A stretch of 64,000 nucleotides of DNA, from the NCBI RefSeq assembly GCF_003018255.1, contig NZ_CP027440.1; one strand, given 5' to 3'. How positions within the stretch are numbered: position 1 is the first letter of the stretch; every line of letters starts with the position of its first letter. Position numbers and translations under genes: made by a program. Source of the stretch: Escherichia coli (GTDB lineage Bacteria > Pseudomonadota > Gammaproteobacteria > Enterobacterales > Enterobacteriaceae). The notes below the pieces were generated by a model. It had not been told where the DNA came from and made no database searches. It saw nothing but the letters and a program-made list of their open reading frames with translations. Shown here in pieces: positions 21,028 through 21,843 of the stretch.

Positions 21028-21330
21028 TTATTCCTCTGAATTATCGATTACACTGTATTCCCCGGTTAATACAGAGGAATCTGCAGGATCGATTGTCAGT
21101 GGTTCCTTTTCATCCATTGATACTGCACGCTGGATCTCAATTGATACGGGCAGATATTTGAACAGGCGACGAATAGCCGTTTTCTTTGCCATTTCTTCCC
21201 AGTGAGTTACCCACGGCCCGTTATTACCAGCTTTACTCTGGCTGCGCACCAGCTCAATCTGTTTGCGCGTCATAACTTCAAACTGAGTACCTCCGTCTTT
21301 CAGTCTTGCGACAGCATAGACGTGGGTATC
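21028..21330 (-). pseudogene. recT: recT 3' remnant (C-terminal region of recombinase RecT only)
   Basis: Reverse-strand translation gives ...[29 protein letters not shown]...SVIDNSEE, matching my recollection of the RecT C-terminus; homology stops near 21330; no N-terminal part and no recE. Confidence 0.65.
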
Positions 21331-21843
21331 AGTGGCAGTGTGAATGCGAACTCCGGGACGCTCAACAACGTCACGATTAATGAGAACTGTCAGATTAAGG
21401 GGAAACTGTCAGCCAATCAGATTGAAGGCGATATTGTCAAAACGGTCAGCAAGTCTTTCCCCCGCACGAACAGTTATGCCAGTGGCACCATCACGGTAAG
21501 AATCAGTGATGATCAGAAATTTGACCGGCAGGTCATGATACCGCCAGTGTTATTCCGCGGTGGTAAGCATGAGAATTTCAACAGTAATAACCAACAGTCA
21601 TACTGGTATTCAACCTGCCGGTTAAGAGTGACCCTCAATGGTCAGGAGATTTTTAATCAGTCCACGACGGATGCTCAGGGCGTATTTTCCTCCGTTATAG
21701 ATATGCCTGCCGGACAGGGGACGCTGACACTGACATTCACCGTATCTTCATCAGGAGCGAATAACTGGACACCAACAACCAGTATCAGCGATCTGCTGGT
21801 TGTGGTGATGAAAAAATCCACAGCAGGTATCAGTATCAGCTGA
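21331..21843 (+). pseudogene. C-terminal fragment of a lambda J-like host-specificity (tail tip) protein
   Basis: Open frame continuing from the recT junction to the stop at 21843 (...[21 protein letters not shown]); sits just before lom as in lambda J-lom-stf; no start codon or N-terminus. Confidence 0.5.

Follow-up and report, generated by a model that had tools for sequence, protein, structure and literature searches.

A probable recT-J deletion junction in a Rac-type prophage remnant of Escherichia coli and the recurrence of its J end point

How did the 3' end of recT come to lie back to back with the 3' end of the tail-tip gene J in a prophage remnant of Escherichia coli, and why does the join fall where it does? 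The locus lies in a stretch of 64,000 nt (assembly GCF_003018255.1, contig NZ_CP027440.1), hereafter the window, whose coordinates are used throughout. Judged by its sequence, the window carries a Rac-type lambdoid prophage integrated in ttcA and cut down to about 13.8 kb between its attachment (att) cores, attL and attR (Table 1). An earlier note on this DNA had proposed that a single deletion, with its junction between 21320 and 21345, fused the two genes and removed everything between them. In a lambdoid prophage recT is read leftward and J rightward. A deletion ending in both genes therefore leaves two promoterless 3' fragments that diverge from the scar, as seen in the window. The best explanation of the locus is, in our judgment, quite probably a single illegitimate deletion in place, of about 36-39 kb, from recT to gpJ through a shared TA dinucleotide. 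Such a scar is ordinary decay of a cryptic prophage, of a well-known kind, and in itself matters little, being one more decay route of a Rac-type prophage. The more interesting part is the base-precise reuse of one J position by unrelated deletions in other prophages, at other loci and in other alleles.

The break point was set by aligning the window, ungapped, to two intact genes, recT of AR436 (L001) and gpJ of 510016 (L002). The window equals intact recT through 21328 and intact gpJ starting at 21327, with chance-level matching past these points. The TA at 21327-21328 is present in both parents and is the crossover (recT GTGGGTA/ACC, J GCGGATA/TCAG, where the slash marks the break, here and below), within the interval that the earlier note had given. 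In the sense of recT the join falls after the second base of codon 170, and in J at the third base of codon D961; in intact J the crossover TA is the centre of GATATC. Around it, 11 of 16 positions are common to the parents (recT GTGGGTAACCGGGGCA, J GCGGATATCAGTGGCA, window GTGGGTATCAGTGGCA).

Both fragments are what the earlier note took them for. The minus-strand translation of 21031-21330 is identical to residues 171-269 of K-12 RecT at 98 of 99 positions (E 4e-73) and matches the Pfam RecT family (E 3e-22, profile positions 115-187 of 198). Identity to recT stops at 21328 and does not run on past 21345. There is no full-length RecT domain (PF03837) here: the fragment holds residues 171-269 of 269, its longest open reading frame (ORF) has 81 aa (21028-21273), and it is promoterless, the N-terminal 170 residues being gone. 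On the plus strand, 171 residues from 21328 match Pfam Ig_GpJ_C, the C-terminal receptor-binding domain of J-type tail tips (E 4.6e-37, profile positions 15-135 of 135), and align end to end with residues 962-1131 of lambda J (47% identity, E 8e-47). The likeness to a host-specificity protein expected for 21331-21843 is thus present, and the frame stops at 21843, 66 nt upstream of lom. The N-terminal and central J domains (FNIII-A_GpJ, Phage-tail_3, Ig_J, Phage_Tail_Tip), present in the intact J of related loci, are absent from the window fragment. We infer that both fragments, recT' and J', are dead pseudogenes.

Two intact prophages integrated in ttcA, in the complete genomes of AR436 (NZ_CP029111) and Eco_23-2667 (NZ_CM176497), carry both junction flanks in the same order and orientation at this site. 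The two TA positions are separated by 38,894 bp in AR436, and the two points by 36,005 bp in Eco_23-2667. From left to right, the AR436 interval holds the 5' two-thirds of recT, recE, a racC-like gene, ydaE and kilR; then ydaF, two helix-turn-helix regulators, ydaT, ydaU, ydaV, DUF1627 and DUF977 genes and queH; then nin-region and Q-like genes, two tRNA genes, essD, rrrD, an Rz-type gene and trkG; and, in its right part, a ParB-like gene, terminase, portal, head and tail genes and J codons 1-961. Common to both prophages between the break points are the 5' part of recT, recE, kilR, the repressor region, ydaT/ydaU/ydaV, Q-like and lysis genes, terminase, portal, capsid, tail shaft and the first 961 codons of J. 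These intervals bear out the list of losses in the earlier note (recE, kil, immunity, replication, lysis, head and tail shaft). The left arm of the window runs colinear with K-12 Rac for 5,294 nt (97.8% identity) and leaves it at the junction. K-12 Rac, proposed in the same note as a reference for the breakpoint, is a poor comparator for the right side, because there a different deletion removed J altogether.

In the history that we favour, one illegitimate deletion of about 36-39 kb would have joined recT (minus strand, before codon 171) to gpJ (plus strand, before codon 962) at the shared TA. It would have taken recE, kilR, the repressor and ydaS/T region, the replication, Q-like, lysis, terminase, head and tail genes and 85% of J, and would have left intR, xisR, a DUF1187 gene and RalR/RalA on the left and lom, stf, a major facilitator superfamily (MFS) pump and sitABCD on the right. 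A break in J could have been joined by end joining or template switching, with the TA and patchy similarity (GTGGGTAaCcGgGGCA vs GcGGaTATCAGTGGCA) as guides. Among 200,000 random position pairs drawn from the intact prophage, at least 2 bp of exact overlap occurred in 11% and at least 10 matches in a 16-nt window in 0.8%. The patchy similarity of 11 in 16 exceeds chance, lying above more than 99% of random pairs; the 2-bp overlap alone does not. A join with no long repeat, 2 bp of exact identity and patchy flanks is the picture of a microhomology-mediated illegitimate deletion.

Searches of the surroundings were negative. The window's ORF list shows no insertion sequence (IS) ORF at the junction or around it, and a search of 21200-34000 found no inverted repeat of the J' start. 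The parental break sites form no unusual hairpin or cruciform (DNA folding z-scores of -0.4 to +0.4), and there is no Chi site in 19-27 kb that could stop RecBCD. Abnormal excision promoted by Int would place an end point at an att core; the junction has no att-like sequence nearby and is 2.3 kb away from attL and 11.4 kb away from attR.

Is the junction a product of the assembly? A junction-spanning query was covered on both sides in 0 of 5,426 complete E. coli genomes, and the junction 28-mer was not found in GTDB species representatives or JGI metagenomes. A pattern with a non-A base before TATCAGTGG had no match in the GTDB representatives and retrieved one metagenome contig, with only 7 nt present upstream, which is probably just another J allele. 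In the nearest complete genomes the flanking chromosome is only 99.7% identical, and the lineage is therefore poorly represented among them. Draft assemblies were searched by a look-up of the 167-aa J' ORF in NCBI. One of them (L049, GCA_043885025.1) has the same junction and is 100% identical to the window over 5,504 nt; another (L048, GCA_031306295.3), which stands for 10 further similar places, has it with 2 mismatches. These copies show the junction to be real and passed on within a lineage. A misassembly that joins two regions of prophage into a chimera might be suspected since J-lom-stf is multi-copy in E. coli (median 2-3 places per genome) and repeats mislead assemblers. It is hardly credible given the identical junction in independent assemblies, a recT side that is single-copy (median 1 place per genome) with a join that does not sit at a repeat boundary, and att cores that both lie where a deletion in place would leave them.

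The right arm raises another possibility. Over 1180 nt, J'-lom of the window shows 0 differences from copies at the lambda att site and at a Qin-type locus in other strains. Positions 21327-26061 are 99.6-99.96% identical to att-lambda and Qin-type modules vs about 97% to the ttcA prophages of AR436 and GF54, and rightward of 24661 (GF54) or 25917 (AR436) the window is about 99.25% identical to these same ttcA prophages. By this shift in identity the right arm is a mosaic, as expected from exchange among lambdoid prophages. Hence, J'-lom-stf could have been cut at the TA elsewhere, for instance in a lambda att remnant, and then copied into a ttcA prophage, with homologous recombination in stf or tfa closing the right side and an illegitimate join in recT the left. 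The identity pattern fits such an import, as does the lambda att remnant of strain E94, in which J'-lom is among the copies without any difference and J has the same end. We nevertheless consider it improbable. The intact ttcA prophage of Eco_23-2667 has a J allele almost like that of the window (3 differences in 1180 nt), so import is unneeded. Zero bases of a donor flank, int or other, lie between recT' and J', and a stop at exactly this base would be unusual for copying that crosses the edge of a homology. Strain C11 has the window's allele in a full-length J interrupted by an IS, so that sharing an allele is not sharing a truncation.

Four junction types, that of the window included, end at the TA of J codons 961/962, and their left partners are unrelated to one another; TCAGTGGCAGTGTGAATGCG is the J sequence at this break, with allelic variants. 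In the window, L048 and L049 the left partner is recT (…GACGTGGGTA/TCAGTGG…). In E94, E92 and L050-L057, at the lambda att site adjoining ybhC, it is a lambda-type int cut after 42 nt, at codon 14 (…ATAAAGGTTA/TCAGTGGCAGTG…). In L034 it is a phage N6/N4 methyltransferase gene (…CAGTTCTA/TCAGTGG…), and in L026, L028, L029, L032 and L033 a stretch of 40 nt from mid-J (nt ~1455-1494), preceded by a truncated terminase (…CTTGCGGTA/TCAGTGG…). The J TA stands at 6001 in L018 and at 2488 in L034, L026 and L050-L057. The int'-J' remnant of E94 and E92 occurs in 2 of the 5,426 complete genomes, plus draft assemblies.

A TA is found at the break in all four intact partners: in recT, in int (GGTTA/GGGG), in the methyltransferase gene (phage cdtI, TTCTA/CCCGGG) and, in some alleles, in internal J (GGCGGTA/AAC). 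Beyond the TA they have only a loose GGnTA in common. Compared with the first 1180 nt of J'-lom in the window, the E94 type shows 0 differences, the L034 type 17 and the L026 type 27, and the junctions therefore involve at least three J'-lom allele backgrounds. The J' ORF look-up sees end points only within 111 nt (J codons 929-965). Within them, 4 of the 5 distinct junction types fall at this TA and the fifth, L027, lies 45 nt upstream, which under uniform breakage would have a probability of ~4e-6 by our own estimate. Other junctions in these prophages use 4-6 nt of microhomology (GGGG in L008, GGGCGG in L006, CTAT at a join of terminase and J); those at the J site, by contrast, have little in common past the TA. 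The J end is probably a site-preferred break rather than a random one, and its recurrence is probably real. Short-homology illegitimate recombination is not expected to reuse one nucleotide with unrelated partners, unlike what is seen at the J TA. The identical end points hint either at a specific enzyme or at the re-use of a J' end truncated beforehand. Against a single ancestral J' end stand the different allele backgrounds, the lack of a donor-flank base at any junction and the intact ttcA prophage of Eco_23-2667 with the J allele of the window.

That the J TA is a genuine enzyme-driven point of breakage or recombination, whose end is joined to TA sites elsewhere in the prophage, is a tentative idea to which we give less than even credence. 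The candidates would be a TA-specific transposase or recombinase, a topoisomerase exchange or a nuclease. Each event would strip lethal and virion genes, always sparing the receptor-binding domain of J, lom and stf. If this is true, prophage domestication has preferred cut sites and is partly programmed rather than random decay.

Applied to the window, the same idea would keep the deletion in place and ascribe it to a TA-cutting enzyme, with the J site as the fixed end and variable left ends, as in a nested-deletion series. The enzyme could be an IS630/Tc1-type transposase whose element has since been excised, a serine recombinase with a 2-bp crossover, or a type II topoisomerase acting by exchange. 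The single J TA joined to four partners supplies the fixed end with different far ends that such a series has. The TA in every intact partner, the three allele backgrounds over four junctions, the clustering within the visible 111 nt and the contrast with the microhomology used elsewhere also favour it, and IS630-family elements are known to target and duplicate TA (PMC2170065). Set against this are the absence from the fixed end of any IS, transposon end or inverted repeat (no IS ORF nearby, no inverted repeat in the range searched), the plain coding sequence of J, in frame and also present in lambda, that follows the TA on its right, and the partners' poor likeness past the TA. We regard this origin of the deletion as unlikely. 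No recombinase site consensus is known to match here, and likenesses to DNA invertase, resolvase, lambda core or gyrase sites are speculation. A blunt EcoRV cut, likewise speculative, leaves the T before ATC in all four junctions unexplained.

Two further candidates for a link between junctions were set aside. The widespread lambda att remnant of the MS20649 type does not share the J TA, its J homology beginning at J nt 2463. A Leu/Arg polymorphism in J', considered as a mark of shared descent of the window and E94, is uninformative: Leu also occurs in the full-length, IS-interrupted J of C11 and in the 936-nt J' of the MS type. In MS20649 and many other strains (L017, L022-L025) a terminase at the lambda att site is fused to this 936-nt J' (…AAAGGG/GATAACCGAA…), a junction separate from the one at the TA, and the Prokaryotic Genome Annotation Pipeline annotates the pair as two abutting pseudogenes. 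In many assemblies (L030, L031, L036-L045) J is split just upstream of the TA site, at ~2470-2485, which is why annotations often list the 167-aa J' ORF as a gene of its own. An A5 run there (GCTAAAAATGCGG) differs in length in L030 (A4) and L031 (A6); splits with an altered run may be real frameshifts or homopolymer sequencing errors.

End points on the recT side were sought with the 81-aa RecT relic, for which the visible stretch is 194 nt. Three further deletions end in recT, joined to ydaU (L004), ydaT (L006, at GGGCGG) and ydaV (L008, at GGGG). The 6.2-kb deletion of L004 uses the same recT TA as the window (…GTGGGTA/CCTGGCTG…). All four recT end points, that of the window included, lie inside about 31 nt (equivalent to 21328-21358 of the window). 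With few cases and 194 nt visible, this cluster is only suggestive. If the J end is a preferred site, the recT TA, which L004 joins to ydaU, may also be such a site, only weaker.

How, then, does a single deletion in place fare? It would be sufficient and is the most parsimonious history of the locus. To this extent the earlier note holds; its 'single deletion' is likely rather than certain, as the J'-lom-stf allele is shared with other loci and the J end point with other junctions, which leaves a small chance of a recombinational origin. Three points weigh against it. The exact identity of 2 bp, reached as it is by random pairs, is weak evidence for a joining mechanism. Three junctions with unrelated partners have exactly the same J end point, which would not be expected of random breakage. 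Finally, the right arm may have a history of more than one event.

By the deletion, the strain loses the RecET genes, kilR and all lytic functions, and keeps the integrase and excisionase, RalR/RalA, lom, the tail fibre gene and sitABCD. The prophage should no longer be able to kill or lyse the cell, and RecET would be lost. The features of the locus are collected in Table 1.

Table 1. Features of the ttcA-integrated prophage remnant and its flanks, in window coordinates
Feature	Position	Strand	Evidence or remark
dbpA	16555-17928	+	window gene list
ttcA	18057-18992	-	window gene list
attL core in ttcA 5' end, left boundary of remnant	18943-18985		43-nt direct repeat with 32764-32806
intR integrase, intact, 411 aa	19044-20279	-	Pfam Arm-DNA-bind_2 and Phage_integrase; intR in homologous records
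xisR excisionase ORF	20281-20520	-	Pfam DUF1233 (putative excisionase) E 8.8e-21; xisR in homologous records
DUF1187 gene (ydaC/rcbA homologue)	20596-20856	-	Pfam DUF1187 E 3.9e-38
RalA antitoxin small RNA, full length	20600-20778	+	Rfam RF02694, 217 bits vs gathering score 170
ralR (lar) toxin / restriction-alleviation ORF	20777-21010	-	Pfam Lar_restr_allev E 5e-14; ralR in homologous records
recT 3' fragment, stop at 21028	21028-21328	-	one base of codon 170, codons 171-269 and stop
chimeric 213-aa ORF	21202-21843	+	42 codons of recT antisense, then J'
crossover dinucleotide TA	21327-21328		common to recT and J; base-by-base comparison
J 3' fragment	21328-21843	+	codons I962-S1132 and stop; receptor-binding C-terminal domain only
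terminator-like hairpin 3' of J'	21861-21880	+	hairpin search
lom (Ail/Lom outer-membrane protein), intact	21910-22509	+	Pfam Ail_Lom E 4e-120; 47% identical to lambda Lom
stf side tail fibre gene, 1103 aa	22568-25879	+	Pfam phage_tail_N E 4.5e-72; C-terminal Peptidase_S74 intramolecular chaperone domain
tfa (tail fibre assembly) relic, 142 nt	25917-26058	+	84.5% identical to K-12 tfaR 3' end; partial tfa in homologous records
MFS efflux gene and sitDCBA (iron/manganese ATP-binding cassette transporter), right-arm cargo	26988-32402	-	Pfam MFS_1, ZnuA; annotation of 99.3%-identical GF54 region
attR core, ttcC-like duplicate of ttcA 5' end, right boundary	32764-32806		repeat and K-12 Rac match

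The assignment to the Rac type follows from the integration site in the 5' end of ttcA, from the core duplicated on either side of the element, and from the left-arm order intR-xisR-DUF1187-ralR/RalA-recT, seen by Pfam, Rfam and colinearity with K-12. Complete early, replication, lysis and morphogenesis regions are lacking (36.0-38.9 kb gone relative to Eco_23-2667 and AR436), which makes the element a remnant. The two copies of the 43-nt att repeat are 84% identical and both match the boundaries of K-12 Rac. Since both att cores, intR and xisR are intact, the 13.8-kb remnant may still be excisable. Just beyond attR, 51 nt (32894-32944) are 76% identical to the 3' end of intR (19197-19247), in a flank conserved in K-12; they may descend from an earlier integrase that used this site.

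The RalR/RalA type I toxin-antitoxin pair lies directly left of the scar, with the small RNA at full length and the toxin ORF open. The upstream recE-recT operon has been lost, and transcription of ralR, if any, must therefore come from a local promoter. There is a promoter-like site on the minus strand at 21069-21040, within the recT relic. The exact 213-aa protein of the chimeric ORF is recorded on a single 4.89-Mb NCBI contig in the protein collection. No promoter-like site was found on the plus strand in 20718-21843, that is, none upstream of this ORF, and it is probably not expressed.

Compared with known systems, the window differs from the intact ttcA prophages of AR436 and Eco_23-2667 in being without the 38.9 and 36.0 kb that they keep; their left flanks are 99.6% and 98.7% identical to that of the window, and the J'-lom of Eco_23-2667 is the near-identical allele mentioned above. 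The cryptic, 23-kb Rac of K-12 has the same ttcA site, the att duplication and the left arm intR-xisR-ydaC/rcbA-ralR/RalA-recT, and is likewise a decayed lambdoid prophage retaining lom and stf. In contrast to the window, it retains recT, recE, kilR, racR, ydaS-W and trkG, and it lost heads and tails by other deletions, marked by ynaK/ydaY and by a fusion of ynaA (tape measure) to lomR, with no J sequence left. In the window the whole early region is also gone, the J C-terminus and an uninterrupted lom are kept, and the right arm has the MFS gene and sitABCD where K-12 Rac has tfaR-pinR-ynaE. The scar resembles the products of short-homology illegitimate recombination (RecA-independent, alternative end joining) in its lack of a long repeat, its 2-bp overlap, its patchy flanks and the absence of a mobile element left behind. 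The closest parallel for its J end is the lambda att remnant of E94 and E92, also a deletion from an early leftward gene to J codon 962, which is identical to the window in the J end to the base (…TA/TCAGTGGCAGTG) and in the J'-lom allele, and differs from it in its locus (ybhC/att-lambda) and in its left partner, int at codon 14.

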